Below, in pieces: positions 2,935-41,507 of a stretch of 58,154 nucleotides of DNA (position 1 is the stretch's first letter; each line of letters opens with the position of its first letter). Under the pieces are notes generated by a model. The model searched no databases, had not been told where the DNA came from, and worked only from the letters and a program-made list of their open reading frames with translations. Both the position numbers and the translations under genes were made by a program. Source of the DNA: a virus (taxonomy: Duplodnaviria; Caudoviricetes); IMG/VR virus record IMGVR_UViG_3300001838_000086, positions 1-58,154 of that record. One strand, given 5' to 3'.

Positions 2935-2938
2935 CTAA

Positions 2939-3292: not shown

Positions 3293-3311
3293 TGTATTGC
3301 ACCAATTTTAT

Positions 3312-3854
3312 TTAAGTTTCGTCATATTTCCATGTAAAAGTCTCTTGACCTGTAGTACCAGCACTTGCTGTATCTGCAACTTCTACTTGGTAAACAACAA
3401 AGTTTCCAAAGTCACCAGTGCTAGGGTTCGATACTGAACCTGTTACTGCTAGTGGTGAAGCAGATGTGTAAGTAAATGCATCTGCTGGTGAACCTGTTAG
3501 ACCACCATGGTTTCCTGTTGTCAGTTGTGTACCGTTACCAACAGTTCCAGTTGCTTGTACATATGAGGTTGCTTGACCGACTTTACATGTGACGCCTGTA
3601 CCAAAGCTATTTGTGCCATCAGTATACCATCTCAAGTTATCAATAGTTCCAGAAGGAGTTGCATCACAACTCAATCGGGTTGATACCCAATAAGAATAGT
3701 GTGTTTCTCCTGTGACTATAGTAACTGGATTTGCTGTATCTGATGTTGAATGTGCATCAGTAGCATTGGCTCTGGTATTTATACCAGTAATGTCGCTTTT
3801 CGTAGGACTTCCAGAAGATCCTGTCCATCTACGAATTGTAACTGTAGCTACCAT
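3312..3854 (-). CDS. virion structural protein (minor tail/fibre)
   Basis: 180 aa T/G/S-rich beta protein; TATA-like TTTAAATA about 22 nt upstream of ATG. Confidence 0.6.
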   Translation of the reverse strand: MVATVTIRRWTGSSGSPTKSDITGINTRANATDAHSTSDTANPVTIVTGETHYSYWVSTRLSCDATPSGTIDNLRWYTDGTNSFGTGVTCKVGQATSYVQATGTVGNGTQLTTGNHGGLTGSPADAFTYTSASPLAVTGSVSNPSTGDFGNFVVYQVEVADTASAGTTGQETFTWKYDET

Positions 3855-3885
3855 ATATAATTTGAAGTTTCCGTATATTTAAAGA

Positions 3886-7395: not shown

Positions 7396-7396
7396 A

Positions 7397-8263
7397 TTAA
7401 GTCACTGATACAGCTGTTGAAAATTCTTCAGACCATTTACCTACGGCACTTTTATCATCGTATAATCTTATCCTCATACGAGTGTAAGAACCAGCAGTTA
7501 AACCTGTAAACACGGTATTATATGTATATACTCCTATTGGTCTAGCAAAAGAAACTTTTTTCCGAACCCAGTCATATTCATCTCTTACACCATCAAACTC
7601 CACTGCAGCTATTGTAGGTCTATCATTAGCAGAGTATAGACTAGACTCTGTTGAGTTTATAGTTATTTGACCAACTCCACCAGTCAGTGAGTTTATTTTT
7701 GATGCCTCTGGTGCGTGACCATATATAGTAACTACTTGTTTACCCTCTATGAAATCTAATGTCGTGGATATATTAACTGGATTACTTGCATCAATGGTAA
7801 AACTTACTGATTGCCACGTTCCTTGTGTTGTCAATAATTTTGCCGTACTATCTATTGTATCAATAGTAGCCCAAGTATAACTAGTAGATCCACCTACACT
7901 ATCATCTAGTATATAGATAAAGAAGTTTGTATCACTTATACCCTTTGGCTGTAAGATTTTAATTTGATTCATTTGTTCAAATGGAGTTTTACTTTTTATT
8001 TGAGTAGGTGATGGATCTATCGCCCATTTATTATTAACTCTTTTTATATTAGTACCAACCATATTTTCTTTTTCCTCTATTAGCATCCAACTTAAACCAA
8101 GATTCATACTATTACCTTCTAATTTTACAAGCATATTTTCTGTTGAATCTTCTTCTGGTAATGGCATTGGGCTGACTGGTGAATTATATCTAAAGCTTAC
8201 ATTACTAAAATTACCAACCTTAATAAAGGTTGTATTACTTCTTAATATTATTGTGTATGTCAT
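7397..8263 (-). CDS. putative distal tail protein
   Basis: Immediately follows tape measure gene; FN3/Ig-like C-terminus; call is positional. Confidence 0.5.
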   Translation of the reverse strand: MTYTIILRSNTTFIKVGNFSNVSFRYNSPVSPMPLPEEDSTENMLVKLEGNSMNLGLSWMLIEEKENMVGTNIKRVNNKWAIDPSPTQIKSKTPFEQMNQIKILQPKGISDTNFFIYILDDSVGGSTSYTWATIDTIDSTAKLLTTQGTWQSVSFTIDASNPVNISTTLDFIEGKQVVTIYGHAPEASKINSLTGGVGQITINSTESSLYSANDRPTIAAVEFDGVRDEYDWVRKKVSFARPIGVYTYNTVFTGLTAGSYTRMRIRLYDDKSAVGKWSEEFSTAVSVT

Positions 8264-10848: not shown

Positions 10849-10873
10849 AAACTTATATATTTCCTATTTCCTT

Positions 10874-11080
10874 TTAAGTTTTCTGTTTCATCTTCCGATC
10901 CATCTCTTTCTGATGGGCATTATGTTGTTCTATAAGAGAAAAGAGGTATGGTACTTGTTGCTTATCTACTTGTTCTTTGTCCCAGCCAAACTCGGCTGCG
11001 AAGAAGTAATAGAGCTCATCAGATCTCGATCTTCTCCCACTATTGTTGTTACCCATGCTTCCAAGAACTGACTTAAAGGG
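10874..11080 (-). CDS. frameshift extension of tail chaperone (gpT-like)
   Basis: -1 frame open from slippery C CCT TTA (11080-11074) to stop at 10874; FAAEFGW motif resembles gpT/E' segments. Confidence 0.7.
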   Translation of the reverse strand, partial: PFKSVLGSMGNNNSGRRSRSDELYYFFAAEFGWDKEQVDKQQVPYLFSLIEQHNAHQKEMDRKMKQKT

Positions 11081-11355
11081 AAGTCAACCATTAAACCTTT
11101 GAGTACTTGCTCAACTACTGAGTTCTTGAGATTTCTGAGAACGCTTATATCGTTAACCTTAAATGGTGCACTTCTGAGTGTTTTCAAAAATATCATTGTT
11201 CTATATTGTGGGATTTTTACTTTGATGTTATTCATATCTGTCATGTCTACACATGAGGTCATGATGGATTCTATCTCACCAAAAGTTAAATCACTTTCAT
11301 ATTCAACAACTTCTCTTTTACCTTCCCAATCTATTTCAAAAGATTTCAGAACCAT
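10966..11355 (-). CDS. tail assembly chaperone (gpG-like)
   Basis: Between tail tube and tape measure genes; overlapped by an open -1 frame. Confidence 0.75.
   Translation of the reverse strand: MVLKSFEIDWEGKREVVEYESDLTFGEIESIMTSCVDMTDMNNIKVKIPQYRTMIFLKTLRSAPFKVNDISVLRNLKNSVVEQVLKGLMVDFPLSQFLEAWVTTIVGEDRDLMSSITSSQPSLAGTKNK
11074..11080 (-). other. -1 programmed ribosomal frameshift slippery heptamer C CCU UUA
   Basis: X XXY YYZ pattern in the correct phase; the -1 frame has a TGA just upstream and is open downstream. Confidence 0.7.
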
Positions 11356-11387
11356 GTAATAATACTATTACAGGGATTTAATAAACC

Positions 11388-12443
11388 TTACGTAGTATCT
11401 ACAGTAACTTTGGCTGTCTTTGCTTTATAGTTAAGTTCTTGATATACTGGTTCTACTGGTTCGATTCCTGTGATAGCAAAATCAGTGAAACTAACACCAG
11501 CTAATTCTATTTTTATTGATTTACTTCCATTAGTAAATGTTAATTCTAGTTCAGCAGTTCCTTCTGCTTTAGTAGATATGTTAGGCTCTCTAACTGAATT
11601 AGCACCCTTTCCTATTTGGGCTAACATTCTTTCATAGAGTTTCCAATCACTCCAAGCCACTTTAAATCTACCAGTAATATCGAGCATTCTTCTATATGAT
11701 GATGTTGCTTGGTTTGATGCTAATCCATATAATAATTCATTGTTAACTGTAAATGTTAAATCAGTGTCTTGAACTAATGTTATCTCAGTTGGATATGTAA
11801 AACCTACTGGAGTACCATCGGTTTGATCACCAGTTGTCAGTTTTAATTTTGCATGTGCAAATGTGTATGGATTTCCACATGTTATCGTTGGTGCTGAGAA
11901 TGATTTACTTGGTGCATTTTCAATACCAAATGCAAAGTCTGTTGATACATTAACTACATCATTAACTGCTGTAGATAATGATAAACTATTTAGCACACAT
12001 CCTTGTAGAGTTCTAACTTTATAATCAGTATGACCTGATACATATGAATCTTCACCAGTCTCAAATCCTACATCTATAGTCATACTCTCTGATATTTTTG
12101 GTGTGCTACCCTGTGTTAATCCACCATAAACACTTGGAGAACCAGCTGGTGCACCAAATATAGCCCTAAAAATATCACCTGAAGTTTCTGATCCACTTGT
12201 AACACTATCTGCTAAAACATAATTTACTGATATAGATCCACTCTGCTGTCCATATGCATATGCAGCTGTCTCAACTTGACCTAGTTTACCAAGATCTATT
12301 CTATTATTAGTTAATGATAAAGTACCAATAGATGTTTTTAATCCAAAAGCTCGGTTAATAGTTCCAGCGATTTCCCCAAAATTAGAGGTTTCCCAACCAT
12401 ACAGAATATAACCATGTGCACCAGTTCTGATGACTCTTGCCAT
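11388..12443 (-). CDS. major tail tube protein
   Basis: 351 aa; GWET near N-terminus, beta-rich, DITGRF; position after neck genes; own TATA upstream. Confidence 0.75.
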   Translation of the reverse strand: MARVIRTGAHGYILYGWETSNFGEIAGTINRAFGLKTSIGTLSLTNNRIDLGKLGQVETAAYAYGQQSGSISVNYVLADSVTSGSETSGDIFRAIFGAPAGSPSVYGGLTQGSTPKISESMTIDVGFETGEDSYVSGHTDYKVRTLQGCVLNSLSLSTAVNDVVNVSTDFAFGIENAPSKSFSAPTITCGNPYTFAHAKLKLTTGDQTDGTPVGFTYPTEITLVQDTDLTFTVNNELLYGLASNQATSSYRRMLDITGRFKVAWSDWKLYERMLAQIGKGANSVREPNISTKAEGTAELELTFTNGSKSIKIELAGVSFTDFAITGIEPVEPVYQELNYKAKTAKVTVDTT

Positions 12444-12474
12444 GTCTCTATTCGACTATCTTAGTATATAAATT

Positions 12475-12888
12475 TTAAGGATTAATAACCCTAAAGTCTA
12501 TAGTAATAATATGATTGAACATATTCCTCATTCTCTCGTTTCTAGATACAGAGTTTAACACCCTCAAATCTACGTATTCATCATAACCTCTTATATTCTC
12601 TTTTATTATTCTCATCAATTCTTTAATTATATCTGAATGTCTTTGAATATCCTGATACGTTCTTATGTCTAAATCTATAGTTATTTCATGTAAATGATCA
12701 CTACCATATAATCCATAATATGTTATACTTTCCTCTCTAGGAGTGATTATTATCTGATCTCGTCTATCATCTATAAGACCCGTTGTTCTTTTTCTCCAAA
12801 CAGCACTAACTTCTGGGGCTGGTGGTGCTGTCCAATTATCGTCTATAAGACTCTTAATCTTATCCAACATATCATAAGTTATTGTCAT
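12475..12888 (-). CDS. tail terminator/completion protein
   Basis: 137 aa, ITIDLDIRT strand pattern; directly upstream of tail tube. Confidence 0.55.
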   Translation of the reverse strand: MTITYDMLDKIKSLIDDNWTAPPAPEVSAVWRKRTTGLIDDRRDQIIITPREESITYYGLYGSDHLHEITIDLDIRTYQDIQRHSDIIKELMRIIKENIRGYDEYVDLRVLNSVSRNERMRNMFNHIITIDFRVINP

Positions 12889-13565
12889 TATGTTACACCT
12901 GATGAATACTGGTAATCTCCGCCATATTTAAAATTAACCCATGTATCGCCTTTACCATAACTACCTTCTGGGGGTCTCATATTCTTTGTTACCTCATTCC
13001 ATTCACCATCAGTCATATTTGATGGTCTTCTTCCTACATACCATATTTTACGAGATATTTTATATGCTATTTGATCAACTACCTTTTCTTCTAATTTGGT
13101 AACATCTGGGAAGCTTGTGCGACTCTCATAGTCATCACCGTAAACTTCTCGCATATATTCTTCTTGGGACATATTAGAAATTTTAACATCTCTAACCCAT
13201 ACTTTTATGGCTTCTATATTAGGTCTACATGAGGCTGGATATATTGCGTTTGAATAATATTCTGGTAATTCCTCATACTCGGTTTTAACTGACATTGGTT
13301 CTATATTATCTTTTAATAGATGATCTGGTGGTTCATCATAGATCTGTTCTTGTAGTCTCTGTCTTAATGCGTTTACTATTTGTTTACTATCATCCATGTC
13401 TTGTGGTAAAATAAATGGTCTATCAGATTTCATAGCAACCTTTAATTTGTACTGACCATTCTCTTCTACTATGTTAGTATTGATCGCCTGTCTATTAGTT
13501 TCTTTTTGTATTTCTAAACTATTCATAAAAGTCCAGAATTGCTCAATACTGAGTTTCTTAGGCAT
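12888..13565 (-). CDS. putative neck/tail completion protein
   Basis: Position; RPNIEAIKVWV...IAYKISRKI resembles phage neck proteins. Confidence 0.45.
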   Translation of the reverse strand: MPKKLSIEQFWTFMNSLEIQKETNRQAINTNIVEENGQYKLKVAMKSDRPFILPQDMDDSKQIVNALRQRLQEQIYDEPPDHLLKDNIEPMSVKTEYEELPEYYSNAIYPASCRPNIEAIKVWVRDVKISNMSQEEYMREVYGDDYESRTSFPDVTKLEEKVVDQIAYKISRKIWYVGRRPSNMTDGEWNEVTKNMRPPEGSYGKGDTWVNFKYGGDYQYSSGVT

Positions 13566-13567
13566 GA

Positions 13568-14206
13568 CTACGGTATGACAAATACTTCTCGTCTGTTTTC
13601 AATACAAGTTTCTATGTCTTCCTTCCAATCTCTTTTTACAGCATTCAGATCTACCATACCACCTGTAGGTACTTCATCCATTCTAAACATTGTATTCATT
13701 AGTTCTAAACATACCATTTTAATTATAGCATCTTTTACATCTGGTGGTATAATACCATCACCAGCTTCACTATCACCACCATATCTATATGTAATTCTTA
13801 ATCTAAATTCTCTAAGTGTTGAGAATAAGTAACCTCTGAAAAACAATTTACCCATCTCAGATTGTATACTATATGTAGAACTACCCTGTGCAGTAATATC
13901 TTCATAGTTACCACCCATACCAGACCACATCTCTACTTTATCACCTTCGGCTGAGTTTATAGGTAAAACCATTCTGTGTTTTAAATTAATAGGAGTACCC
14001 CAACCATAAACATAATTCAATGGTAAATCATAAACTTCATTTTTAGATTGTTTAATACCCCATGTATGACCTACTCTTCTTTCAAATTCTGCTTCTTTTC
14101 TTATGATTATTTTTTCTATCTGAGTTTTATTTGGGCTTGTTGTAGCAGTAATAGGAACTCTTAGATAATCACTAATATCCTCTATTGTGCAGTAAGTCGT
14201 TGTCAT
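13568..14206 (-). CDS. head-tail adaptor/connector protein
   Basis: YCTIEDISDYL N-terminus and ITYRYG...IPPDVKDAI motif. Confidence 0.75.
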   Translation of the reverse strand: MTTTYCTIEDISDYLRVPITATTSPNKTQIEKIIIRKEAEFERRVGHTWGIKQSKNEVYDLPLNYVYGWGTPINLKHRMVLPINSAEGDKVEMWSGMGGNYEDITAQGSSTYSIQSEMGKLFFRGYLFSTLREFRLRITYRYGGDSEAGDGIIPPDVKDAIIKMVCLELMNTMFRMDEVPTGGMVDLNAVKRDWKEDIETCIENRREVFVIP

Positions 14207-14240
14207 TAGTCTTATAAAGATTACGAAGTATTTAAATTTG

Positions 14241-14513
14241 CTATTTGTAAACTACGAGTGCTCTAACTGTTGCACTAGCACATGATACATAAATACCATT
14301 CTCAAACCTTCTATTCAGTTGAATATAACTTATAGGATGCTCTGAATGTATTGTAAATTCTATTGGTGCAGTTCCAGTAGTACCGTTTCTAAATACTAGT
14401 GTTGAATTATTATCATGAATCATTACATGAACTGCAACTACTACACCGTGATTGCCTTTTACTAAAGTATTAGCACCGTCTATATTCTTAATATTATGGT
14501 TATCTTCGACCAT
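14241..14513 (-). CDS. small virion protein
   Basis: 90 aa beta-rich, FENGIYV motif; own TATA upstream. Confidence 0.5.
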   Translation of the reverse strand: MVEDNHNIKNIDGANTLVKGNHGVVVAVHVMIHDNNSTLVFRNGTTGTAPIEFTIHSEHPISYIQLNRRFENGIYVSCASATVRALVVYK

Positions 14514-14575
14514 GAGTAATGTGTTAAATTGAAATATATAAACTTTAAGATAAAAAAGAAGGCTTTTTACGGACT

Positions 14576-14932
14576 CTAGTAGCCGAAAACTAGAAATTCA
14601 AATGTGGCATTCGCAATAGATGTCGTGTTTGCCATTTCCTCGAATCCACCAGCGGTTGTATTCAATGCTTCATACAACTTGATTTTCTCACTACTTTTGT
14701 CATATTTGACAATATAGTTAAGGCTTGAGGTTTCGGGAATCACTGCTACTAGGGTTGAAATTCTACCTTGCTTCAAATCGGCACTAACACCATTTGTTGC
14801 ATAAGTATCGCTTCCCCCAGCAGTGCATTTGATCTTGTAACATCTTAGTTTAGATGTTAAAGCAGACTGTAGTGACAATGTTTTGCCAACATTAGCTGCT
14901 GTCCAATCACTTACTGATGTGGTGATAGCCAT
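14576..14932 (-). CDS. putative capsid decoration/head protein
   Basis: 118 aa; DTYATNG...KIKLY...FLVFGY pattern; close to MCP. Confidence 0.55.
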   Translation of the reverse strand: MAITTSVSDWTAANVGKTLSLQSALTSKLRCYKIKCTAGGSDTYATNGVSADLKQGRISTLVAVIPETSSLNYIVKYDKSSEKIKLYEALNTTAGGFEEMANTTSIANATFEFLVFGY

Positions 14933-14993
14933 AGTAAACTTAATTAATGAGGGATATATAAAGTTGTGGATGGACTTTAAACTTAAAGTAGAT

Positions 14994-15113
14994 ATGAAAT
15001 TATGTCCAAAGTGTTATTTACCAGCATATGCAGCGGTTACAACCGAAAGCCCACGAGTTCATTATTACTGTCAAAATATGTTCTGTAGTATGTTAGGTAA
15101 AAGTATAGAATAA
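14994..15113 (+). CDS. Zn-ribbon microprotein convergent with amoC
   Basis: MKLCPKC...YYCQNMFC; start codon uncertain. Confidence 0.4.
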   Translation: MKLCPKCYLPAYAAVTTESPRVHYYCQNMFCSMLGKSIE

Positions 15114-15121
15114 AAAAGAGT

Positions 15122-15685
15122 TTATGGGATTGCTCTAGAATAGAGTTTACCTTCTAATGCCATCTTATACATTTCTGCAACGTATGGGTTTTCACTTGGA
15201 GTTTCTGCACCAAGTTCAACCAGTCTAGCATACACTCTGACTACATAAGCCAAAGCACCCATGAAGGCAACTACAACTCCCATATTGAACATCCAATGGT
15301 TAGGCACTGCAAATATCTCTTCTACAAACCAAAAGTGCCACATTTCGTTAACACCAATGGTAAACATGGTTGCAAGATAACCTAGTATAGTCATCTTTAA
15401 TCCAGTGTTCATAGAGTTTCCTACACCTCTCAATATTGGTACTTTACGATCATAAATCGCAACACTACCCCAACCTAGAGGTAATGCTATGAAATGACTG
15501 TATAACCACCAATGAGCTGGTGTAAACGCAGAGTCCCTAATAGATGTTTGATGAAGTGAACCATCAACAAAGTTATCAACCTCTACAGAAGCAGCGGTTG
15601 ATCCCATCGCAATTACAATCAACCAAATTTTCTTCAGTCGTTGTATTTCCACTTCTTTTGGAATTAAGGCTGGAATCTGTGCCAT
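15122..15685 (-). CDS. amoC: ammonia monooxygenase subunit C (archaeal), auxiliary metabolic gene
   Basis: 187 aa MAQIPALIPKEVEIQRLKKIWL...EGKLYSRAIP, closely matching archaeal AmoC; D-x3-H-x12-H metal motif intact. Start taken as ATG 15685 rather than track start 15775. Confidence 0.97.
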   Translation of the reverse strand: MAQIPALIPKEVEIQRLKKIWLIVIAMGSTAASVEVDNFVDGSLHQTSIRDSAFTPAHWWLYSHFIALPLGWGSVAIYDRKVPILRGVGNSMNTGLKMTILGYLATMFTIGVNEMWHFWFVEEIFAVPNHWMFNMGVVVAFMGALAYVVRVYARLVELGAETPSENPYVAEMYKMALEGKLYSRAIP

Positions 15686-20121: not shown

Positions 20122-20536
20122 ATTTTTCCTGAAAGTCTTTACCATATTTCTTTCTTAAATGCTTCCAGAATGGATCATTACCCATCATACCACCACTAGT
20201 GTTGTATTTTTTAGTTACATCTGCGATTTTTCTATGACATGACATACAAAATCTAGCATTTATTTCTTCAAGTGCGAATTTATGTAGACCACAAAACAGA
20301 CAAAGACCATAATGTTTGTAAGAAACCGTGGTTAACAATGCCTCTCTACCTCTTTTACCAGCACAGTCACCACATATAGTAGCGATTGTAGCCGCGGCAA
20401 CATCTTTTTTCAAACAATTCAGACAAACTGCTTCTTTATAGTGATTAACTCTTGTAAATTCGTTCTTTTGATGACGATCCCATAGTTTTTTTCCTATATC
20501 GTCACCACCAGTATTAACATTTAACTTGGTTGCCAT
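20087..20536 (-). CDS. Cys-rich Zn-finger protein
   Basis: Four CxxC pairs; start overlaps portal stop. Confidence 0.7.
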   Translation of the reverse strand: MATKLNVNTGGDDIGKKLWDRHQKNEFTRVNHYKEAVCLNCLKKDVAAATIATICGDCAGKRGREALLTTVSYKHYGLCLFCGLHKFALEEINARFCMSCHRKIADVTKKYNTSGGMMGNDPFWKHLRKKYGKDFQEKFKQGWAQRARD

Positions 20537-22497
20537 TACTCTTCTTCGTCATCTTCCCATTTTTTCACTACATCAAACTCATTTCTAACAAGTTCTCTAG
20601 CATCTCTAACTGTCATACCAGCGAATTTTCTCAACTCCTCTATGGTTTTACCCTTAGTCCAATTAAAATCTATCGCGGTTTGTAGTGTTTTTTTGACAAC
20701 CTCAAAGTTTGTTGGTGTAATTCCATCAGGAAAACTCTTTTTTGACATACTTGTGCCACTACCACTAGCAGGGAATCCACCAGCCACGCCACCAATATCA
20801 GATGGTCTACCTAATTTAGGTTCACCTTGCATGTTTTGTCTACCTTCTTTAGGTGAAGCAGTTCCTCTGCCCCTACCTAAACGAGCTTCTGCATCGGCTC
20901 TCATCATTTCTTCTGTAGACATGGCTGTATTTTTACTCACTTTAAATTCACCAGTGTGTGTTCTTGTAATTTCAAAGCCCATTTGTTGTAGTATTGCCAT
21001 ATTTTGTATTTCAACACCCTGAGTTTGTAAATCTCTCAATTTATCGTTCTCTTCTCCAGCTTTTAATTGTAAAACCCAATCATCAATGTTCAAAGTCTCT
21101 GCAACTTTGTCGAAAAATGCCTTTGTAAGTATATCCTGACCCCACTTTACTGCCCTATTGGTAATAGTAACTTGTAATCCCTCTTGTGACCAACCACCTA
21201 CCATCTCACCATAATACAGTGGTAAAACACCATAAATAGCACCAATCATCTGTCTTAATTCTTTTCTAACTTCAATAAATTCTAATTCTCTCAACGAACC
21301 AGTAAAGTCTAACCATTGAGCCATGTTTTTACCACCTTTATCAGATTCTACCATAAGTGGGTGAATCATGTAGGGGTCTTCAGCGGCTCGTTGTTCTAAT
21401 TCGTTCCAAGACTTTCTAAATGTCTCATAGTTTCTACTTGCAATAACTAGCATACCTCTTGGTGGTCTCATTTTATCGAAATACTTTCTAACGTATTCAT
21501 CCATATGAGATAAAGTCATAGCTTTACTCCATATAGCATAAATTGGAGAAAATCCATAAACTAGAGATGGTTTGTATTTACCAGCCTTCCAAATTACTTC
21601 ACCTTCACCATAAATAACGCTTTTTGGCTGTGGTGTACCGATAGAATAGACAGAATTAACTTCAATAATAGCCTTTAGAGCCTCTACTGGTTGAGAATGA
21701 ATTCCATCAGTGGTAACTTCACATAATGGTTTGTTTAATCTCTTTCTACGATGTTCAAAATGAGGACATACGAATATTGGCTCATGTTTATCATTATATC
21801 CTAGTCTACCATCACTATCACATATTACTGCTACTTGTGGTGGGTCTAGTCTAAGCAATTCTTTGATTTCCGTACCATTTGGATTGATCTTACCAGTTGC
21901 ATCACTAATACTATAACTCTTTAATAACAATAGATATGCGTTATCAGCTATTTCCAAGTCTCTTTCTAATTGTCTAGATAAATCCTCTAATGTCTGACCG
22001 TTACCGTTTACAGATTTTTTCATTAGGTTCTCTAATTTCAATCTGTGTTCTGGAACTGGTCTTCTTAATTTATCACTACCACAAGTATCACACTGCATAG
22101 CAGATTGATCAATATTAGCCTTTGATTTTGGTATTGCATTACCAGCATTATCCTGATTTTGCTCAAATGGTTGATCATCTGGTCTTTCACTTACAAGTGG
22201 GGCATATTGGAATTCTTTACCACAATTCTCACACTTGTACTTCCAACGTTCTACTACTTCAAAACCGTTTTTGAACATTTCACGATTTAAAGTCTCAATA
22301 GGTATTCTCAATGCATCAATGTTATCGGCTAACTCATAAAGCATCATAAGAGGGAATGGGAAAATAGGTAATTTAGCACCACTATCTGTAGACATATAGG
22401 GCGTGGTTATACTAGGTCGTATAGTACCTTCAGTCTGAGATTTATTAATGTTTATAAGAGATTTGGCTACATTACTAAAATAATCTCTAACACCCAT
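20536..22497 (-). CDS. portal protein
   Basis: 653 aa; DLEIADNAY, YGFSPI, YFDKMRPPRGML, IGAIYGVLP portal motifs; CxxC insertions. Confidence 0.9.
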   Translation of the reverse strand: MGVRDYFSNVAKSLININKSQTEGTIRPSITTPYMSTDSGAKLPIFPFPLMMLYELADNIDALRIPIETLNREMFKNGFEVVERWKYKCENCGKEFQYAPLVSERPDDQPFEQNQDNAGNAIPKSKANIDQSAMQCDTCGSDKLRRPVPEHRLKLENLMKKSVNGNGQTLEDLSRQLERDLEIADNAYLLLLKSYSISDATGKINPNGTEIKELLRLDPPQVAVICDSDGRLGYNDKHEPIFVCPHFEHRRKRLNKPLCEVTTDGIHSQPVEALKAIIEVNSVYSIGTPQPKSVIYGEGEVIWKAGKYKPSLVYGFSPIYAIWSKAMTLSHMDEYVRKYFDKMRPPRGMLVIASRNYETFRKSWNELEQRAAEDPYMIHPLMVESDKGGKNMAQWLDFTGSLRELEFIEVRKELRQMIGAIYGVLPLYYGEMVGGWSQEGLQVTITNRAVKWGQDILTKAFFDKVAETLNIDDWVLQLKAGEENDKLRDLQTQGVEIQNMAILQQMGFEITRTHTGEFKVSKNTAMSTEEMMRADAEARLGRGRGTASPKEGRQNMQGEPKLGRPSDIGGVAGGFPASGSGTSMSKKSFPDGITPTNFEVVKKTLQTAIDFNWTKGKTIEELRKFAGMTVRDARELVRNEFDVVKKWEDDEEE

Positions 22498-23064: not shown

Positions 23065-23232
23065 ATGGTCGAATTAGAAGCAGAGGACTATCTAAACATA
23101 CTTAGATGGTTTGAATCTAGGTTTTCCAATACACTCCCAGAAAACATACCTATTAAACACAAAAGAACGTTTTGGAAACTTACGTTTCTAGCCGAAGACA
23201 AGACAAAACAGGATAAATTAGAGCAAAACTAA
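23065..23232 (+). CDS. hypothetical microprotein (55 aa)
   Basis: Not in track; MVELEAEDYLNILRWF...; TTTAAAT boxes upstream. Confidence 0.55.
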   Translation: MVELEAEDYLNILRWFESRFSNTLPENIPIKHKRTFWKLTFLAEDKTKQDKLEQN

Positions 23233-23424: not shown

Positions 23425-24004
23425 GATGGTCGATTCGTGGGGTGCGAGGCATTTTGGCGGCTACGCTGGCGTTAAACATACTGCAAAACACATCGTAGCA
23501 CAAGTTCCGAATATGAGCAAGTATAATACGTGGGTTGAGCCTTTTAGTGGACTTGGAAGAACTGCCGAACATATTGTCAGGCAAAACCTGACACTTATAT
23601 TGAATGACAAATCCGAATATGCGAATAATTACTGTAAAGAGCATTTTCCAAATGCCATAGTTGAAAATATGGACTTTATGGAAACTATAAACAAGTATGA
23701 TAGTCCTACGACATTCTTTTTGATTGATCCACCTTGGCGTTATCATGCTTATTCTTTGAATAATTTGGCTTTTTGTGATAGAAAGGTTGTTGTTTATTAT
23801 AGGGAATTATTGGAAAGAATCAAGACCCTACAGGGTGACTGGTTTCTACTTTCTGATGCCGCTGAGAGAGAGAATTATCACACTTTGACTAAAAGTGGAT
23901 GGGGTACTAGGGTTGTAATGAGTGAAAAGAAGGTATTGTTTGGGTTATATGCCAAGACTTTGATTTGTTCTAATCTGTTTATCAGGTCTCAACCTGATAT
24001 CTAA
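23423..24004 (+). CDS. DNA adenine methyltransferase (Dam/D12-like)
   Basis: YAGVK, WVEPFSGLG (motif I), ILND, FLIDPPW (motif IV). Confidence 0.85.
   Translation: MMVDSWGARHFGGYAGVKHTAKHIVAQVPNMSKYNTWVEPFSGLGRTAEHIVRQNLTLILNDKSEYANNYCKEHFPNAIVENMDFMETINKYDSPTTFFLIDPPWRYHAYSLNNLAFCDRKVVVYYRELLERIKTLQGDWFLLSDAAERENYHTLTKSGWGTRVVMSEKKVLFGLYAKTLICSNLFIRSQPDI
23981..23998. repeat. palindrome ATCAGGT-N4-ACCTGAT, copy 2
   Basis: At 3' end of the MTase gene. Confidence 0.8.
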
Positions 24005-24016
24005 ACAAATATATAG

Positions 24017-24211
24017 GTGTATAGATATAATAATACCATGGTTAAGACATGGCAAGTTGGAGTAATTACATTCCTGATTTGCAGTTTAATTTTTTCGCCA
24101 ATCGGCATAATTATAGCGATAGTTATGTATAAGCGTTCTCAACGCCCGCAAAAACCCGATGCAGAAAAACTGCGAAAGGAATATAAAGTACTATGGGATG
24201 ATATGGTGTGA
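24017..24211 (+). CDS. small membrane protein
   Basis: Hydrophobic segment; likely true start MVKTW at 24038. Confidence 0.6.
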   Translation: MYRYNNTMVKTWQVGVITFLICSLIFSPIGIIIAIVMYKRSQRPQKPDAEKLRKEYKVLWDDMV

Positions 24212-24405
24212 TGAGTATCTTTTCAAAAAGAAATCTTGAAAACACTATTTGCATGGCTTGTGGTTTGCCTTTTATAAAACACACCAAAGATCGTGCTACG
24301 AAATTTTCCGCCAAGGCATTGATGAAATGTATGATGAGAGTACAGGCTTCATATGCTCTGGATATGGATAAATTAAAAATGGAGAAAAAAAATGAGAGTG
24401 GGTGA
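24208..24405 (+). CDS. hypothetical Zn-binding microprotein
   Basis: CMAC..H..C; overlaps neighbouring ORFs. Confidence 0.55.
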   Translation: MMSIFSKRNLENTICMACGLPFIKHTKDRATKFSAKALMKCMMRVQASYALDMDKLKMEKKNESG

Positions 24406-24942: not shown

Positions 24943-25067
24943 AATATATCAAATACAGTAATAGTATATAACATCATCGGTTTGATTAGGATATGATAGA
25001 TTATTGCAAAGTCCTCACACCAGACCCGCCTTGAATAAGGGTTATTAAAGGTTATACTCATGCCTGT

Positions 25068-25095
25068 GATAATCAAACCTATGAGGTTATATAGT
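25068..25095 (+). promoter_or_regulatory. early promoter motif GATAATCAAACC-N-TATA (also at ~25538, ~25873, ~26737 on + and ~24987 on -)
   Basis: Five copies, each followed by a TATA-like box and a start codon or RNA 5' end roughly 20-30 nt later. Confidence 0.7.
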
Positions 25096-25115
25096 ATGAT
25101 AACACTAGGTATAAC

Positions 25116-25460
25116 ATGACTTCCACAAGAAGCGATATAGTATTTGATAACACAACATCAAAGGCTATCTCGGCACTAACTGAGATTCAAAACTATCTCG
25201 AATACGAGTTAGATTTGATTCAGGCATCACTAGAAGGATTGAATTCCTTTAACATTGATACTGAATCCGTCTTGGATAAAGTATCAACATTAGTGCATGA
25301 CTTAAGCGATTTGAATGGTCGTCAAAACACTGAGTTTACTCATGCTTTGGCAGTCGCTTTCAAGAATGTCTTGCACTTGGAAAACTTCTGGGAAGATGAA
25401 TCGAATTGGGAAGGTCTGTCTGCTAAGCAATATCTTGGCAGTCAAGACCTTTATTCCTAA
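25116..25460 (+). CDS. acidic helical early protein
   Basis: 114 aa; own promoter and downstream T-tract. Confidence 0.7.
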   Translation: MTSTRSDIVFDNTTSKAISALTEIQNYLEYELDLIQASLEGLNSFNIDTESVLDKVSTLVHDLSDLNGRQNTEFTHALAVAFKNVLHLENFWEDESNWEGLSAKQYLGSQDLYS

Positions 25461-25575
25461 ACTCTTTTTTTTATTATACTAACCATAACCTTTATCTACC
25501 CTTGTTTTGTACGCCGCCTTATATACTATGCCTATATGATAATCAAACCGACAGTATTATATGCTATGATGGATA

Positions 25576-25776
25576 TTGAGAAGTATGAATGAGCCAACTA
25601 CAAGATACAAGGAAACTTGTGGGCATATCTTTGTTTGCCCCAAGTGTGACACTCCTCTAATTGAGGATAAGAGGGCAAGAATGGAAACTAACACAAAGTA
25701 TGTCAAGTTCTATAATTGCCCCCATGATCATTCGTTTATCGAAACTTGGTCAAGGACAAACTTTGAGGAGTTTTAA
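25576..25776 (+). CDS. Zn-ribbon early protein
   Basis: CPKC...CPHDH; own promoter and T-tract. Confidence 0.65.
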   Translation: MRSMNEPTTRYKETCGHIFVCPKCDTPLIEDKRARMETNTKYVKFYNCPHDHSFIETWSRTNFEEF

Positions 25777-25918
25777 CCCTCTCTTTTTATTGTGCTATCA
25801 TAACCTTTAACTACCCTCATTATAGAGCAACCTTTATATACCCTTAGTTGTACGCGGGCGATTAGGCATATGGATAATCAAACCGATAGTGTTAAATAGT
25901 ATTATGGGTATTAGTAAT

Positions 25919-26253
25919 TAGTCAAGTAGTTCTGCTACTTGATTAGGGTAAAGTGGGTTTCTGATATTTCCCACTGTTTTCAGGCTTTAGAGAGTTGAAG
26001 CACCCGATAACTCTCAACTTAAAGTAATGGAGCTCTAGGTGGGTGGAATGACACCAAGGGCGGGCACACGAAAGAGGCAAGGAATGATTTCTGACAGAAA
26101 AGGGCTTCTTATCAGTGTGATAAGAACTGTTGTATGGTATGCAACAGAGCCCGCTACAAAGATAAGAGCTACAGCCAAAAGGCACAAGAACGAGGCGTTT
26201 ACAGCGTAGGCTATGGCTTACGGAAGTATAGGCACGCCTACCATTACTTTTTT
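25919..26253 (+). ncRNA. candidate ~330-nt highly structured non-coding RNA
   Basis: Early promoter upstream, T6 tract downstream, no credible ORF, many nested stems including AAAGTAATGG (26021-30) / CCATTACTTT (26241-50). Confidence 0.65.
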
Positions 26254-26265
26254 ACTATTCGCCCT

Positions 26266-26567
26266 AACCTTTATATACCGTTATTATTGACATACTCCAA
26301 CAACAACCTTTATATACCCTTATTCCAGACCAGAACCTTTATATACCCTCAGTTCGAACATAACCTTTATATACCGTCACTTTAGAGTTGTACACGCGAT
26401 TCGTGGTGGGGTGGCGATACCTTTATATACCGTTAAAAAAAAATAAAAACCTTTATATACCCTTGTATGAGCCATAACCTTTATATACCCTTGCTATGCC
26501 CATGTAGGCTATATATAGGTTTCGGTCTATTGTATAAAAAAAATACGATAGAAACCTTAATATACCG
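26266..26567 (+). repeat. array of AACCTTTATATACC(C/G) direct repeats (BRE-TATA-like / iteron-like)
   Basis: Copies at 26266, 26305, 26334, 26362, 26418, 26448, 26476, 26553; inverted variant ~26508-26522; further variants at 25487, 25802, 25829, 26709. Confidence 0.9.
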
Positions 26568-26780
26568 TTGGCGGTGCTGTATAGTATAGTATTCTAGGAA
26601 TCAATCAGATCTATTATATGACAATATTATTGTGAGTATAGTTATTGGTGTGTATTATAGTGGTTATAGTGATTATGTATGATACTGACTACGGGTTAGC
26701 GGGTGCGAAACCTTTATAAGCCCTTGTTTTTGCCGAAATCAAACCGAAGGCTTTAATAACTTTGACCGCGCAAAATCGCC

Positions 26781-28073
26781 ATGCCCCAAAGCATAACCGA
26801 CCAAACGGCAAACACAGAGAGCACCATTGTTTTGAATGAGGGTGAACGTATCCTTAATGGTGTCAATGGTTTGCAAGATGTATATTATAGGTCTCCAGAC
26901 CTATATCTAACAATGGAACGAACCGAAGAAGGTTTACTTCTATTCCTTAGAAGTGAATTCCTTGCTAGATATATATTGGAACATGGAACAAATCCAACAT
27001 TCTATGGTAGTAGATACCAACTCACTAGAAATAGTGTAGGTATGAGTGAAGATAATGGGTTTGTTAGATATATCCCAGCTCGTATATATAACAATAGAGT
27101 TCGTGGATATATAACTATACCATTCCACAATGTCTTATATGATATGAGTGATGGTATGGTAATAAACCAACAAGAAAGAGAAAGAAATGCTAGAAATTTC
27201 TCTAGGGGTGTACAAGTATTGTATACTCAACCAATACCTGAGACCTCTTTCAGAACAATTCGTATTGATATTCTGAGAGGATATGAGGAATTTATTAGAG
27301 ACATACAACGTGAATACATGTCTACTCATAGTGGATATAACTATCCATTAGTTAATCTCTCTATGAAATCAATACCACGAAAAAAGAATGGCACATTTAT
27401 AAAAGATGGTGTCATCTACAAAAAGATAACAGCTGTTAATACAGTAGCAGTTGAGTTCGAGGGATTCTGGTTTGATGGACATGTCCCAGATGGTGTGTAT
27501 AGTGATTGTAGTGTATCAAATGGACTACGACCTAGATGCCAATGTGAAGATAGAGATGCATGTCCCTCATGTAATGGTGTAATAGGTGAAGCAACTAGTG
27601 GCATATGCACACCTGATACCATAGATGAATGGATGGGATTGAATCACCCAGATAAAGTTGATGCATCATGTGGTATGCATGTACATGTAGGATTCAACAA
27701 TGACCTGTTAGCATACAGTAAACTCATGACACCTACATTCCATAGATACTTCCTCAAACGATTCAATGATTGGGGTAAGCGTATGAATATCAATGAGGGA
27801 TCTAGGTTCTGGGTAAGAATGCAGGGGCAGAATAGATTTGCTATGGATAAATTCCGTGCAACAAAACAATACCTCATGACACACAAAAGCGTAGAGAGAT
27901 ATACATTCCTCAACTTCTGTTGGGGTCTGCATGGAACATTAGAGAATCGTATGCTACCTATGTTCAATGAGTCACGAATAGCTGTGAGTGCAGTACATGA
28001 GTTCATTGATATAGTGAATTCATATCTAGCAGAGAACATAGATGAAGCATACTCTTACGAGGTGGTAGCGTAA
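26781..28073 (+). CDS. putative amidoligase (COOH-NH2 ligase, Amidoligase_2-like)
   Basis: VAVEFEG, D.S, CGMHVHVG, RYTFLNF, GTLENR motifs. Confidence 0.8.
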   Translation: MPQSITDQTANTESTIVLNEGERILNGVNGLQDVYYRSPDLYLTMERTEEGLLLFLRSEFLARYILEHGTNPTFYGSRYQLTRNSVGMSEDNGFVRYIPARIYNNRVRGYITIPFHNVLYDMSDGMVINQQERERNARNFSRGVQVLYTQPIPETSFRTIRIDILRGYEEFIRDIQREYMSTHSGYNYPLVNLSMKSIPRKKNGTFIKDGVIYKKITAVNTVAVEFEGFWFDGHVPDGVYSDCSVSNGLRPRCQCEDRDACPSCNGVIGEATSGICTPDTIDEWMGLNHPDKVDASCGMHVHVGFNNDLLAYSKLMTPTFHRYFLKRFNDWGKRMNINEGSRFWVRMQGQNRFAMDKFRATKQYLMTHKSVERYTFLNFCWGLHGTLENRMLPMFNESRIAVSAVHEFIDIVNSYLAENIDEAYSYEVVA

Positions 28074-28075
28074 AC

Positions 28076-28903
28076 ATGTGCGTTATCATTCTCTGTGAGA
28101 GAGAGTTTCCTAGTGTAGATACCTTGAAGAGTGCCGAAGCTATGAATGGTCATGGTGGTGGTATTGCTTGGGTAGATAAAACAGGCAAGGTTATGTATCA
28201 TAAAGCTCTAGGGGCTGATGAGATACAACATATAATAGAAACAGAAGCACAACTACCAGCCATAGTTCACTTCCGTATCGCTAGTATTGGTCATGTGAGT
28301 GATGAGTTATGTCACCCATTCCCAATCACAGATGATAGTGAGGTGTCTCTTAGTGGTGAGTGTGATAGTGTTCTATTCCACAACGGAACGTGGGGTGAAT
28401 GGGACACTCATCTATTGAGTGCAATCACTAGTGGTAAATTACCCATGCCAAAAGATACCAAGCATATGTCAGATAGTAGATGTATGGCATTACTAGCTAA
28501 CACATATGGTAAGAACATTCTTAACCTGATAGCTGGTAAGTCAAATAAAATTGCAGTGCTATCTATCAATGGCATAGAGAAGTTTGGTGAAGGCTGGGTC
28601 ACACACAAATCTAATACATGTAGCAACGACTACTTCGTAAAGAGAGAGACTGTGTTTACCTATGACCCAATGAGTAAGGCATACTCATATACAATAGCCA
28701 ACAACGACAACACACAACACCATAACAAGAAGAAGAAAAAGAAAGGTAAGAACAAAACCTTTCAAGATTATTCTTGGAAAGATTGGGAGTATTCCCTTAA
28801 CAATGGTAAAGACAATGACGTTGATAAAGACATGGCTATTAGTAATGCATATGATGAGTATTGTTCCATGTATGATAAGATGTATGAAGGTGGTCAACAA
28901 TGA
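28076..28903 (+). CDS. class II (Ntn) glutamine amidotransferase
   Basis: N-terminal MC nucleophile, NGHGGG, HFRIASIG, CHPF, FHNGT, SDS. Confidence 0.88.
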   Translation: MCVIILCEREFPSVDTLKSAEAMNGHGGGIAWVDKTGKVMYHKALGADEIQHIIETEAQLPAIVHFRIASIGHVSDELCHPFPITDDSEVSLSGECDSVLFHNGTWGEWDTHLLSAITSGKLPMPKDTKHMSDSRCMALLANTYGKNILNLIAGKSNKIAVLSINGIEKFGEGWVTHKSNTCSNDYFVKRETVFTYDPMSKAYSYTIANNDNTQHHNKKKKKKGKNKTFQDYSWKDWEYSLNNGKDNDVDKDMAISNAYDEYCSMYDKMYEGGQQ

Positions 28904-38586: not shown

Positions 38587-40536
38587 ATGGAATACACAGA
38601 CTCGGCATATGTTGATGCAATATATGAAAAATTATGTCAGCGTAAACATGCACAGATAGTATCTGGATTAAAACCAAATAGTGTATATACATTAGATGTT
38701 GAGAGTCCTGATTTTGTTGACTTGTTTGTAATGAATACTGATGGATTTAAGGATGCAGTAAAGTCAGCAATATTCCGTATGCTAGAAGAACAATATACCA
38801 CATTCAATATACCCCAAGTATTTGGTCAGTTGGATATTAAACTGATTGGTAAAACACCAGTAGAGATGCATGATATAAATTCAAAGTTTGAGAATACAGT
38901 AATAACATTTGACTGTATAATATCTGCAACTGATTCACCGAAAACATATATTAAAAAGGCTTTGGCTACATGTCCTTTATGCTTTGGTCAGGAAGAAGTT
39001 AAGTGTAACTTTGAAAAGAAAATACCAATAGCATTATGTTCTAACCCACCATGTAAGAAAGCGAAAATGTCTGTCAGTGCTAATCAAATACAGACTGATG
39101 ACGTTCAGACTTTATTCTTTCAAGAGTCATTAGAGAAAGCAAGACATAGTTCTCCAGTTGTTCTTACAGGTAAGGTATATGGTAGTGATGTAAGTACATC
39201 TTATGTTGGTCAAAAGAAAAGAGTGACTGGTATCTTTAGGTCTATTATAAATTCTGAGACTAATGAGAATGATGTGTACATAGATGTACTATCAATAAAC
39301 AACTTGGAAGAAGAGGAAGATGTAATGCCAACAGAACAAGAAGAGAGTCAGTTTAGGACTATGGCAAAAGAGAAAACATATCTTGACAATCTGGTTAATA
39401 GTTTTGCCCCTAACATATATGGAATGAGTGACATAAAACTATCCATATTGTTACAGCTTGTTGGTGGTGTTAAGAGTACCAAACGTTCAGATATAAATAT
39501 CTTTCTAGTTGGTGACCCATCAATGGCAAAGTCTGAATTATTAAAGTATGCAAAGAAGATTACCAAGAAGTCTATCTATACATCTGGTAGAGGTACATCT
39601 GCAGCGGGTCTTACGATAGCCGTTGTAAAAATTAACGATAGATTTGTTGCACAGGCAGGGGTATTACCTTTATGTAACAATGGCTTTGCCATGATAGATG
39701 AATTTGATAAGATGAATAAGGATGATAGGAGTGCCATGCATGAGGCTATGGAACAACAGACAGCTTCAGTAGCCAAGGCTGGTATAGTATTAACTTTACC
39801 TACAAAGACTACGATATTAGCCGCGGCTAACCCGAAGTATGGGGCATATGATCCAGATAGCACACTTAGAGATAATGTAGATATACCTGTACCATTATTG
39901 TCAAGGTTCGATTTGATATGGTTGATAAGAGATACAGTTAATGTCACTGAAGACATGATGAAGGCTACTCATATCATAGATTCATTTGAGTCTACAAGTA
40001 CAGGTAAAAAAGAATGTAGTTTATCTGAAGAGTTGTTGAAGAAACTATTGAACTTGGCAAGACAGCAATCACCTAGAATAAATGATGATGTGAAAAACGA
40101 AATCATAAAAATCTATAACCAGATGAGAGCGGTATCAAGTAATGATGAACTACCAGTAGGTGTAAGACAGCTAGAGGCTTTGATTAGATTATCATATGCA
40201 TTAGCCAAGTTACGATTGAAGGACTTTGTAGAATTGGATGATGTGTTGACTGTAAAATCACTGATTGAATCTATGTATAACTCGTTCAATCTCACGATGA
40301 ATTCTGGTAATAGACAGACTATACTTACTGGTACTACCAGACAAACTAAGCAACAACTTGCAGATAAAATCTGGAGTGAATGTGAAGATGAAAATGGTAG
40401 CGTGAATATAATAGAGTTCATGAAGAAGTTAATTGAGAATGGATTTGAACCTATGGAAGCCAAGAAGATGTTTGGTAACTGGGAAAGATTCAACCAGATA
40501 CGTTTAAATAGTGATGGCACGTATAGAAAAGCGTGA
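38587..40536 (+). CDS. mcm: MCM replicative helicase
   Basis: Zn finger, GDPSMAKS, SAAGLT, IDEFDKM, HEAMEQQT, LLSRFDL, RQLEALIRL. Confidence 0.97.
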   Translation: MEYTDSAYVDAIYEKLCQRKHAQIVSGLKPNSVYTLDVESPDFVDLFVMNTDGFKDAVKSAIFRMLEEQYTTFNIPQVFGQLDIKLIGKTPVEMHDINSKFENTVITFDCIISATDSPKTYIKKALATCPLCFGQEEVKCNFEKKIPIALCSNPPCKKAKMSVSANQIQTDDVQTLFFQESLEKARHSSPVVLTGKVYGSDVSTSYVGQKKRVTGIFRSIINSETNENDVYIDVLSINNLEEEEDVMPTEQEESQFRTMAKEKTYLDNLVNSFAPNIYGMSDIKLSILLQLVGGVKSTKRSDINIFLVGDPSMAKSELLKYAKKITKKSIYTSGRGTSAAGLTIAVVKINDRFVAQAGVLPLCNNGFAMIDEFDKMNKDDRSAMHEAMEQQTASVAKAGIVLTLPTKTTILAAANPKYGAYDPDSTLRDNVDIPVPLLSRFDLIWLIRDTVNVTEDMMKATHIIDSFESTSTGKKECSLSEELLKKLLNLARQQSPRINDDVKNEIIKIYNQMRAVSSNDELPVGVRQLEALIRLSYALAKLRLKDFVELDDVLTVKSLIESMYNSFNLTMNSGNRQTILTGTTRQTKQQLADKIWSECEDENGSVNIIEFMKKLIENGFEPMEAKKMFGNWERFNQIRLNSDGTYRKA

Positions 40537-41507
40537 GTCAAGAAGAAATTAATTTAAATGTTTCACAGTTAGATGGTGTAGGCTCTGTTACAGAAAAGAA
40601 ACTCGTAGCGTTTGGAGTAAAGACCATACTTGATATTTGTGTAAGAGGTTCTGCTGAGATTGCAGAGATTACAGGTGTAGGTAGAGACAAGGCAGACCAA
40701 TGGTCATTCAATGCACAGAGAATTTTAGAGGATAATAATATAATAAGAAAGTCCGACATGGATACAGTAGAACTTATGGAATATCAAGAGAACTATCCAA
40801 CACTTGCAACTTGTTGTAAAGAAGTAGACGGACTTATGGGTGGTGGTGTAAAACCAGAGGCTACCTATGAGGTATATGGTGAGTTCGGTAGTGGTAAAAC
40901 TCAGTTCTGTAACTCACTTACAGTAGAAGCCATACGACAGGATATGAATGTGATATGGATTGATTGTGAAGATACATTTAGACCAAGTAGAATCTTTGAG
41001 ATACTTAAAGCAAGAGGATATGTAGAAGATAAAGAACAAGCAAAGTCAATGCTCTCTAGAATCAAGTATTATTACACACCTAATACAGAGTTACTCATGG
41101 GCACTGTTAATAACCTATCAGAAACTATGCTAAGTTTTAAACCTAGATTGGTTATAGTAGACGGTGCTATTGGGCAATTTAGGGAGGAGTATTTGGGTAG
41201 AGGCACGCTTGCAGACAGACAAAACCAGATAAAAAGGCTCATGACTCACCTAAAGAACATAACATATTACTTCAAATGCACGGTTATCTTTACTAACCAA
41301 GTACAATCTGATCCATCTACCATGTTTGGAGATCCAATAAAACCTATTGGGGGTAACGTTGTAGGTCATGCAAGTACTCATAGAATGTACTTTAAGAAAT
41401 CGGGTAAGAAAAGGATAGCAAGAATGATAGATAGTCCAGAATATCCACAAGCAGACGGTGAATATATCCTAGATGCCAAAGGTATCTCTGACTTGGAAGA
41501 AGAATAA
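40533..41507 (+). CDS. radA: RadA recombinase
   Basis: N-terminal HhH, GEFGSGKTQ, EDTFRP, GRGTLADRQ, TNQV, PIGGNVVGH. Confidence 0.95.
   Translation: MSQEEINLNVSQLDGVGSVTEKKLVAFGVKTILDICVRGSAEIAEITGVGRDKADQWSFNAQRILEDNNIIRKSDMDTVELMEYQENYPTLATCCKEVDGLMGGGVKPEATYEVYGEFGSGKTQFCNSLTVEAIRQDMNVIWIDCEDTFRPSRIFEILKARGYVEDKEQAKSMLSRIKYYYTPNTELLMGTVNNLSETMLSFKPRLVIVDGAIGQFREEYLGRGTLADRQNQIKRLMTHLKNITYYFKCTVIFTNQVQSDPSTMFGDPIKPIGGNVVGHASTHRMYFKKSGKKRIARMIDSPEYPQADGEYILDAKGISDLEEE

Follow-up and report, generated by a model that had tools for sequence, protein, structure and literature searches.

Phage T7 carries a cluster of strong host-type promoters (A1-A3) near its first-expressed region, and in T4-type phages a promoter-plus-terminator motif (PeSL) flanks small variable ORFs. 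Both are bacterial sigma-70 systems with directional promoters, and we know of no description of 28-30 bp close packing or of inverted copies in either. Sal-box arrays (T1-T10) are repeated Pol I terminator sites. In the Pol I roadblock terminators described in the available part of PMC3045592, a Reb1/TTF-I site is accompanied by an upstream T-rich release element. For archaea, the sequence just downstream of oligo-dT terminators has been described to alter termination and polymerase recycling (Spitalny and Thomm 2008, PMC2253867, available part). Among archaeal viruses, the closest concept in the literature is that of conserved early regulatory sequences, in which a strong BRE/TATA core with a flanking operator precedes small early or anti-defence genes (PMC11065993, available part); tandem, gene-free or terminator-linked copies are not described in that part of the source, where the word ‘tandem’ occurs 0 times. 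A limited literature search by title and abstract found no description of TATA-box arrays or TBP roadblocks in archaeal viruses, and almost nothing is known of the organisation of transcription in viruses of mesophilic archaea.

In the virus described here, boxes that match the core-promoter consensus lie 12-17 nt behind oligo-T runs, and an array of them precedes the main operon. The array is tentatively read as an amplified terminator-plus-box boundary (a barrier and/or a restart point) made of putative TBP/TFB landing sites, a reading to which we give a little less than an even chance. As in the sequences of PMC11065993 (available part), a near-identical strong core precedes many small single genes, the region is variable and the flanks are conserved beyond BRE/TATA; the same core with shared flanks was found upstream of several small genes of this one virus. 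Unlike in that part of the source, the box is separate from the TATA of the gene, follows the preceding terminator at the distance given above, tolerates inversion and forms gene-free tandem arrays. As at Reb1/TTF-I sites (PMC3045592, available part), a T-rich tract lies at a short fixed distance upstream of a predicted protein site, and copies are found between units, ahead of the next promoter; in contrast to those sites, the box resembles a general promoter element rather than the site of a dedicated terminator protein, and its polarity seems relaxed. [quoted passage not shown]

The window, that is, the whole stretch of DNA that was analysed, is the entire 58,154 bp of a linear IMG/VR record with a CheckV completeness of 93%, and its source is a tailed archaeal virus. 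In addition to the genes listed in Table 1, an AAA_5 ATPase with a VWA partner, a Dam-like methylase and a DenV-like glycosylase are encoded. No primase was detected among the window ORFs scanned, no tRNAs were found in the window and no Rfam family reached the gathering score in it. Coding runs leftward to 22.8 kb and then rightward to 41.5 kb. RadA shares 66-74% identity with many environmental proteins, and the best cellular matches of MCM are 30-45% identical (58% over one 50-residue piece) and come from across DPANN, Thermococcus and Asgard MAGs. RadA and a CobS-like ATPase are typical genes of Marthavirus, which infects ammonia-oxidising archaea (PMC7678222, available part); a Nitrosopumilus host is plausible from gene content only, namely RadA and the CobS-like AAA_5 ATPase.

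The first two genes of the long rightward operon (26781-28903, plus strand) resemble the phage pair of amidoligase and Ntn/class-II glutamine amidotransferase. For the 430-aa ORF at 26781, 25 of 30 Atlas matches fall in clusters with PF12224 in 14-42% of their members, and Pfam analysis of this ORF returned nothing even at E = 10; from the Atlas lead only, it looks like a putative amidoligase. The second gene has the N-terminus MCVIIL and a weak match to GATase_6. Among public phage records, neither a protein match to the 430-aa ORF nor a match to the DNA of 25400-26800 was found.

Just upstream of this operon, in a gene-free stretch, lies the array, which a sequence-only reading had described as phased BRE/TATA-like boxes in that position. 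A mismatch scan recovered all eight direct boxes of that description (starts in Table 1) with the start-to-start gaps it had given (39, 29, 28, 56, 30, 28 and 77), and the inverted variant (26507/26508-26521), the extra box at 26709 and the A-tracts in the spacers (A9TA5 at 26435-26449, A8 at 26536-26543) are likewise present. The absence of genes also held: only mechanical ORFs of 32-83 aa overlap the array, and in a tblastn comparison with a diverged relative the sole match in the array stretch was to the 83-aa ORF (26134-26385), over 26-27 residues overlying boxes. The list was incomplete, as direct boxes at 25487, 25802 and 25829 and one minus-strand box occur as well. In all, 14 boxes lie within 25039-26723 and adjoin five small transcription units; eight of the nine array boxes are oriented toward the operon. 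A search for AACCTTTATATACC at two or fewer mismatches gave 13 matches in the window against 0.88 expected, all confined to 25487-26722, and none of 100 shuffles reached 13. The repeat unit extends to 17 nt (ACCTTTATATACC[C/G]T[T/C]), its spacers are unique and 11-25 nt long, and as RNA the array shows no excess structure (z = -0.16).

The array is not an assembly artefact, as its boxes were recovered unchanged in three near-identical contigs from independent assemblies. These contigs have 15, 16 and 11 mismatches in the hub, none of them in the 180, 180 and 116 box positions covered; with about 1.5 expected in the boxes of each contig, the sparing of the boxes is not significant.

CRISPR-like arrays have repeats of at least about 24 nt with unique spacers of similar length. 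With a repeat of 15-17 nt, spacers of 11-25 nt and no Rfam match, a CRISPR-like mini-array was rejected for the present case. A packaging site was also ruled out, TerL lying 23 kb away.

Table 1. Coordinates of boxes, oligo-T runs, promoters and selected genes in the window
Feature	Position	Strand	Remarks
Portal	20536-22497	minus	
Second-class promoter	24978-24990	minus	
Single box AACCTTTAATAACCC	25039-25053	minus	Upstream of the predicted minus-strand leaderless promoter of ATG 24942
Second-class promoters	25068-25090, 25538-25560, 25873-25895, 26737-26759	plus	
Oligo-T (T8)	25465-25472	plus	Terminator of the 25116-25460 cassette
Single box AACCTTTATCTACCC	25487-25501	plus	14 nt after T8
Oligo-T (T5)	25784-25788	plus	After Zn-ribbon ORF 25585-25776
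Two boxes, 25802 and 25829	25802-25843	plus	27 bp apart; 13 nt after T5; followed by GTTGTACGCGGG at 25847-25858
Oligo-T (T6)	26248-26253	plus	End of structured RNA candidate
Array cluster 1, boxes 26266, 26305, 26334 and 26362	26266-26376	plus	First box 12 nt after T6; followed by GTTGTACACGCG
Array cluster 2, boxes 26418 (TACC...), 26448 and 26476	26418-26490	plus	A9TA5 abuts second box
Inverted box AACCTATATATAGCC (26521 to 26507) and A8	26507-26543	minus	Reads T8-N14-box on minus strand; faces box 26476
Eighth direct box AACCTTAATATACCG (AACCTTAATATACC at 26553)	26553-26567	plus	
Last box AACCTTTATAAGCCC (AACCTTTATAAGCC at 26709)	26709-26731	plus	Followed by T5 (26727-26731)
Promoter of the operon, AATCAAACCGA	26737-26783	plus	TATA TTTAATAA at 26752-26759; predicted leaderless ATG 26781 of the 430-aa ORF
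MCM	38587-40536		
RadA	40533-41507		
TerL	49195-50577	minus	

The box consists of a BRE-like AACC, the TATA TTTATATA and a conserved CCC(T) tail, and its left 12 nt are the promoter consensus of the virus itself, in which leaderless ATGs follow the start of TTTATATA by 29-30 nt. In 20 first-ATG ORFs of the window, a TATA-type octamer (mostly TTTAWATA) starts 27-30 nt before the ATG, and the mRNAs are therefore predicted to be leaderless; positions -4 to -1 before these octamers are A, A, C and C in 11, 15, 7 and 8 of the 20, respectively. The boxes match this promoter consensus of at least 20 leaderless genes, in agreement with the BRE/TATA-like character claimed for them, and the single copies of the AACCTTTATA core that had been noted elsewhere are present: the one at 38223 precedes the ATG at 38256 by 33 nt, and the one at 44107 precedes the ATG at 44141 by 34 nt. 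These two single promoters are without the TACC[C/G]T tail of the box, and the CCC(C/T) flank, the best conserved flank of the box, is seen in only about two of the 20 ordinary promoters. No ATG is found 33-34 nt downstream of the array boxes.

Each gene in the 24.9-26.8 kb hub possesses its own second TATA at -29, preceded by AATCAAACC (TATA-ATG pairs 26752-26781, 25555-25585 and 25087-25116); on the minus strand, TTATATAC lies 29 nt before the ATG at 24942. The box at 26709 was considered as the operon promoter and ruled out, as the TATA at 26752 lies 29 nt before the ATG at 26781. The hub promoters form a second promoter class, in which AATCAAACC(G/T)A lies 3-5 nt before a TATA located 29-30 nt upstream of a putative leaderless ATG. 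This class was also seen in relatives, as AATCAAAT and TCTTCAAAT in the related contigs L077 and L078 and as GGTTAGTAA in the complete relative G005; in the latter the hub gene promoters have drifted in the same way as its box, toward AAGNC-TTAATAA.

Coupling between boxes and oligo-T runs was counted over 144 boxes from 18 sequences (two or fewer mismatches), with a run of at least five T ending 9-19 nt upstream in the orientation of the box scored as positive. Such a run precedes 64 of the 144 boxes, with a mode at 12-16 nt; among random sites the figure was 240 of 3600, and among ordinary gene promoters it was 5 of 66. Of the remaining boxes, 46 have a preceding box no more than 62 nt away, which leaves 34 with neither a T-run nor a box before them. 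The typical gap from oligo-T to box is 12-17 nt; within the window, gaps of 14, 13 and 12 nt follow T8, T5 and T6, respectively, and A8 is located 14 nt to the right of the inverted box. At T8 a real RNA 3' end is seen: in two RNA runs of one study, contigs stop at 25473/25474, with a 24-A tail in one run and a fold-back in the other.

Judged from sequence, this module is found at nearly every border of the small putative early-gene cassettes in the virus clade, and the array is its predicted amplified copy. The order is an oligo-T run, 12-17 nt, a box in one to four copies 26-30 bp apart, and then the next gene's own TATA and leaderless ATG. As consensus core-promoter elements, the boxes should be high-affinity sites for host TBP/TFB, and we infer that these factors bind there and act as a barrier or in restart. 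A factor-loaded box would stand directly in front of an RNA polymerase that has reached the T-run with its active site; the 12-17 nt gap probably approximates the distance from the active site to the leading edge of the polymerase, so that a loaded box would hold the enzyme on the T-run. Loaded boxes may help to stop or recapture polymerases leaking out of a cassette, while those in forward orientation could also start or restart transcripts. The eight-box array between T6 and the TATA at 26752 would then form a reinforced border between the variable early cassettes and the amidoligase-to-MCM/RadA operon.

A more general form of this idea is that the clade builds boundaries from the initiation machinery, a TBP/TFB-bound box, set half a polymerase footprint (12-17 nt) after each oligo-T run, halting polymerase on the weak U:A hybrid and thereby serving, like Reb1/TTF-I at rDNA, as a roadblock-assisted terminator and insulator that would work in either orientation and could be amplified to shield the operon; this we regard as conceivable, if doubtful. 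The lifetime of TBP/TFB complexes may be too brief for them to stop a polymerase during elongation, and the tight spacing of T-run and box could come from inheritance as one unit rather than from mechanical coupling. The grammar offers a directly testable model of archaeal transcription-unit insulation, with general factors as possible boundary elements, and a practical signature for variable early, possibly anti-defence, cassettes in this metagenomic virus group.

Conservation of the array in related viruses, including its spacing, had been named as a check on the array, and both were observed. The box recurs in viruses with portal proteins 68-87% identical to that of the window and in 16 metagenome contigs. 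Phasing is evident across six viruses: among the 36 distances between neighbouring boxes that do not exceed 100 bp, 19 measure 26-30 bp. Boxes in relatives occur singly, in clusters of three to four and as facing pairs, and the 4+3+1 arrangement of the window is the largest cluster seen. They extend across 1.7 kb in the window, and in L163, L164 (both with boxes and a portal of 68-69% identity) and G005 across 3-4 kb; the portal of L078 is 81% identical. At two or fewer mismatches, the stretches examined contain 14 boxes in the window, 14 in L077, 14 in L078, 13 in L163 and 11 in G005, and in every genome the count is far above shuffled controls (for example, 15 against 0.3 and 14 against 0.63). 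G005 has a variant box (ACGCTTAWTAACCCC) in 11 copies, of which 6 of the 11 listed lie 13-16 nt after a run of six to eight T. Among more distant GATase relatives (L079-L153), k-mer and seed scans found a similar TATA-box cluster in none of 74 loci; L093 has a tandem repeat of 19 nt that is unrelated, and the repeat in L135 is GC-rich.

A fixed orientation toward the served gene, as expected of a core promoter, is not seen in these relatives. All 15 boxes on the L078 contig are inverted relative to the genes, with their location unchanged (11 of them 13-19 nt after a T-run), and orientations on the L077 contig are mixed. Facing box pairs are present in eight sequences, and in 11 of the 13 pairs listed the second box has an outer T-run. 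These orientations bear on the alternative that the boxes are plain tandem strong early promoters, every one firing rightward and the array multiplying the initiation events that feed the main operon. Analogues are found in phage T7, with its A1-A3 promoters, and in Halobacterium, where rRNA promoters are in tandem. The arrangement in the window fits such promoters too, since the array boxes, all but one, point to the operon; moreover, the box is a consensus promoter whose identical core drives the leaderless genes at 38256 and 44141, an RNA contig (X6, 26405-28500) runs from within the array into the operon, and in G005 the first boxes are some 500 nt away from the terminal repeat, where early promoters are typically located. 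However, the boxes of L078 are directed away from the genes that lie downstream, and transcription from facing pairs would collide. With a spacing of 28-30 bp, transcripts from one box would begin on the TATA of the following one, so that neighbours cannot all load polymerase at once, a mutual exclusion that fits a binding platform better than additive promoters. The genes also have their own TATA at -29, and T5 (26727-26731) separates the array from the operon start. Tandem promoters are considered unlikely; were they the whole explanation, the array would be a tidy but ordinary case of promoter multiplication.

The number and dispersal of the boxes bear on the sequence-only proposal of a TBP/TFB sponge, in which the boxes would titrate host initiation factors, shutting host promoters and enriching the factors near viral ones. 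The sites are of consensus strength, are packed at about the size of a TBP/TFB footprint and yield no product; the related genomes have approximately 11-15 boxes each in the stretches examined, dispersed or clustered, and the role would be independent of orientation. Yet a dozen sites per genome could absorb few factor molecules except at high copy number, the virus itself depends on these factors, and the 12-17 nt coupling to terminators is left unexplained; a sponge is considered improbable.

Relative B, represented by two syntenic contigs with proteins 36-90% identical to those of the window, has three boxes (30 and 27 bp apart), an A-tract box, an inverted box, a last box and a AATCAACCGA promoter, in that order. 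The amidoligase-like protein is the least conserved between the two viruses (36% by tblastn, 40% by alignment). The spacers between the boxes cannot be aligned with those of the window, and the cassettes at 25116-26253 are absent. Such differences in cassette content between relatives with the same module borders would also be expected if the array were a set of recombination scars, that is, geneless leftovers of mobile regulatory cassettes whose terminator-promoter modules served as short homologies, as PeSL motifs do in T4-type phages. The virus encodes RadA, and contigs often break inside the arrays (L017, G001/G002, G006). The array spacers, however, are unique and only 11-25 nt long, not cassette remnants, and box sequence and spacing are under selection across relatives of 68% identity, where scars alone would decay; this origin of the array is exceedingly improbable.

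The breaks were observed at the end of L017, the end of G002, the start of G001 and the first bases of G006 (the L163 contig), and hint at copy-number or strain variation there. In G005 (L190/L191), which has a 119-bp direct terminal repeat, the physical genome end lies between the portal-side small genes and the box cassettes, and the hub therefore adjoins the genome terminus in this virus.

The conserved tail of the box raises the question of a dedicated reader. The array could be an operator for a box-binding protein, viral or a host TFB/TBP paralogue, that reads the TATA core together with the CCC(C/T) tail and cooperatively silences or activates the cassette promoters. F55 acts in this way at the early promoters of SSV1, as does Aca8 at the early-gene motifs of rudiviruses. 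Over the variants AACC...CCC, AATC...CCCC and ACGC...CCCC, no flank is as well conserved as the CCC tail, and its rarity in ordinary promoters means that a dedicated protein could read the box, which counts against the boundary reading; orientation is tolerated. Two small ORFs with counterparts in box-bearing contigs are candidates for such a protein, 23065-23232 (matching 7 of 22 related sequences at 40-63% identity) and 24211-24405 (7 of 22, 30-59%). A viral wHTH protein is known to bind conserved early regulatory sequences (PMC11065993, available part). On the other hand, identity over 12 nt to the general promoter consensus is unlikely to be a coincidence, no DNA-binding family was detected in the hub ORFs, and neither the 65-aa divergent ORF nor the 114-aa ORF was matched by tblastn in any of the 22 related sequences. 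The viral RHH proteins invoked in the sequence-only reading were not found among the window ORFs scanned. A dedicated box-binding protein is considered distinctly unlikely.

A replication origin had also been suggested, with the boxes as iterons for loading of the viral MCM. In this scenario the A-tracts would form the unwinding element, and initiation might be transcription-primed, as at the primary origin of T7. In favour are the repeats in both orientations, the tracts A9TA5 and A8, the G-runs, the viral genes for MCM, RadA and an RNase H-like protein, and the position of the array within a flat minimum of cumulative GC skew at 22-27 kb. This minimum falls where the coding strand changes, near 22.8 kb, and is explained by transcription; the skew analysis that had been proposed does not speak for an origin. 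The boxes are dispersed over the cassette borders of this virus and its relatives rather than concentrated at one locus beside an AT-rich element, although A-tracts are present, and as iterons they would be identical to the promoter consensus. Neither an adjacent initiator gene nor a transcription-independent skew inflection was found; the neighbours are amidoligase-like and GATase-like, and MCM is 12 kb away. An origin at the array is therefore very improbable.

Transcription of the hub was followed in assembled contigs of RNA libraries from one study, from which 5' ends cannot be placed. Contig depth is very uneven in the hub, at 1576-15145 over 25166-25474 compared with 2-3 over 23500-23830, and the libraries therefore hold real viral RNA. 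The array is bridged by contigs in X5 (25611-26761) and in X6, the latter reaching into the operon. Runs X13 and X14 have no listed cover over 26211-26962 and 26157-27179, respectively, to which no weight is given for expression.

The most abundant hub RNA by far is that of 25164-25474 (plus strand), with its 3' end at T8. Adapter-flush 5' ends at 25164-25166 were seen in three runs, 29 nt after TATAGTAT at 25136 and inside the 114-aa ORF (ATG 25116); this RNA may derive from an internal promoter or be a processed RNA. A structured RNA candidate (25919-26253, plus strand) lies downstream of a AATCAAACCGA-TGTTAAAT promoter and ends in T6. It has a 12-bp hairpin at its start and an MFE of -110.6 kcal/mol (z = -4.47), with none of 100 shuffles folding as well, and is covered by RNA contigs of all four runs; it has no Rfam match and is absent from relative B. 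At 26599-26731 (plus strand), AATCAATCAGATC-TATTATAT, which is conserved in L077, is followed by no ORF; from it, an RNA of about 90 nt would run from near 26641 to T5 (26727-26731), across a conserved GTGRTTATAGTG repeat block.

Several further elements were noted. The element GTTGTACGCG(A/G)G follows the last box of a cluster at 25847-25858 and 26386-26397 (AGTTGTACACG at 26386-26396), with a variant at 25505-25516. It is also found in relative B, L077 and L078, with TTACGTCTAGTTA as its equivalent in L163, and may be an operator or the initially melted region. The two-box pattern also matched L011, with a 22-nt period, and L013, in a simple repeat of 10 nt; both were rejected, their contexts being unrelated. 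On L011, a 244-kb contig, 6866-6944 holds four copies of a 22-nt unit (GTGTACCTTTATATACCCTCAT) with the same core; other phased arrays with this core are L174 225-368 (four boxes, 47-48-nt period) and L187 2658-2696 (three boxes, 19-nt period). In L164 (flipped), two copies of the palindrome CTAGAAC-N5-GTTCTAG (9748-9775 and 10512-10535) lie between divergent small-gene promoters, and this palindrome is likely the operator of a local regulator.
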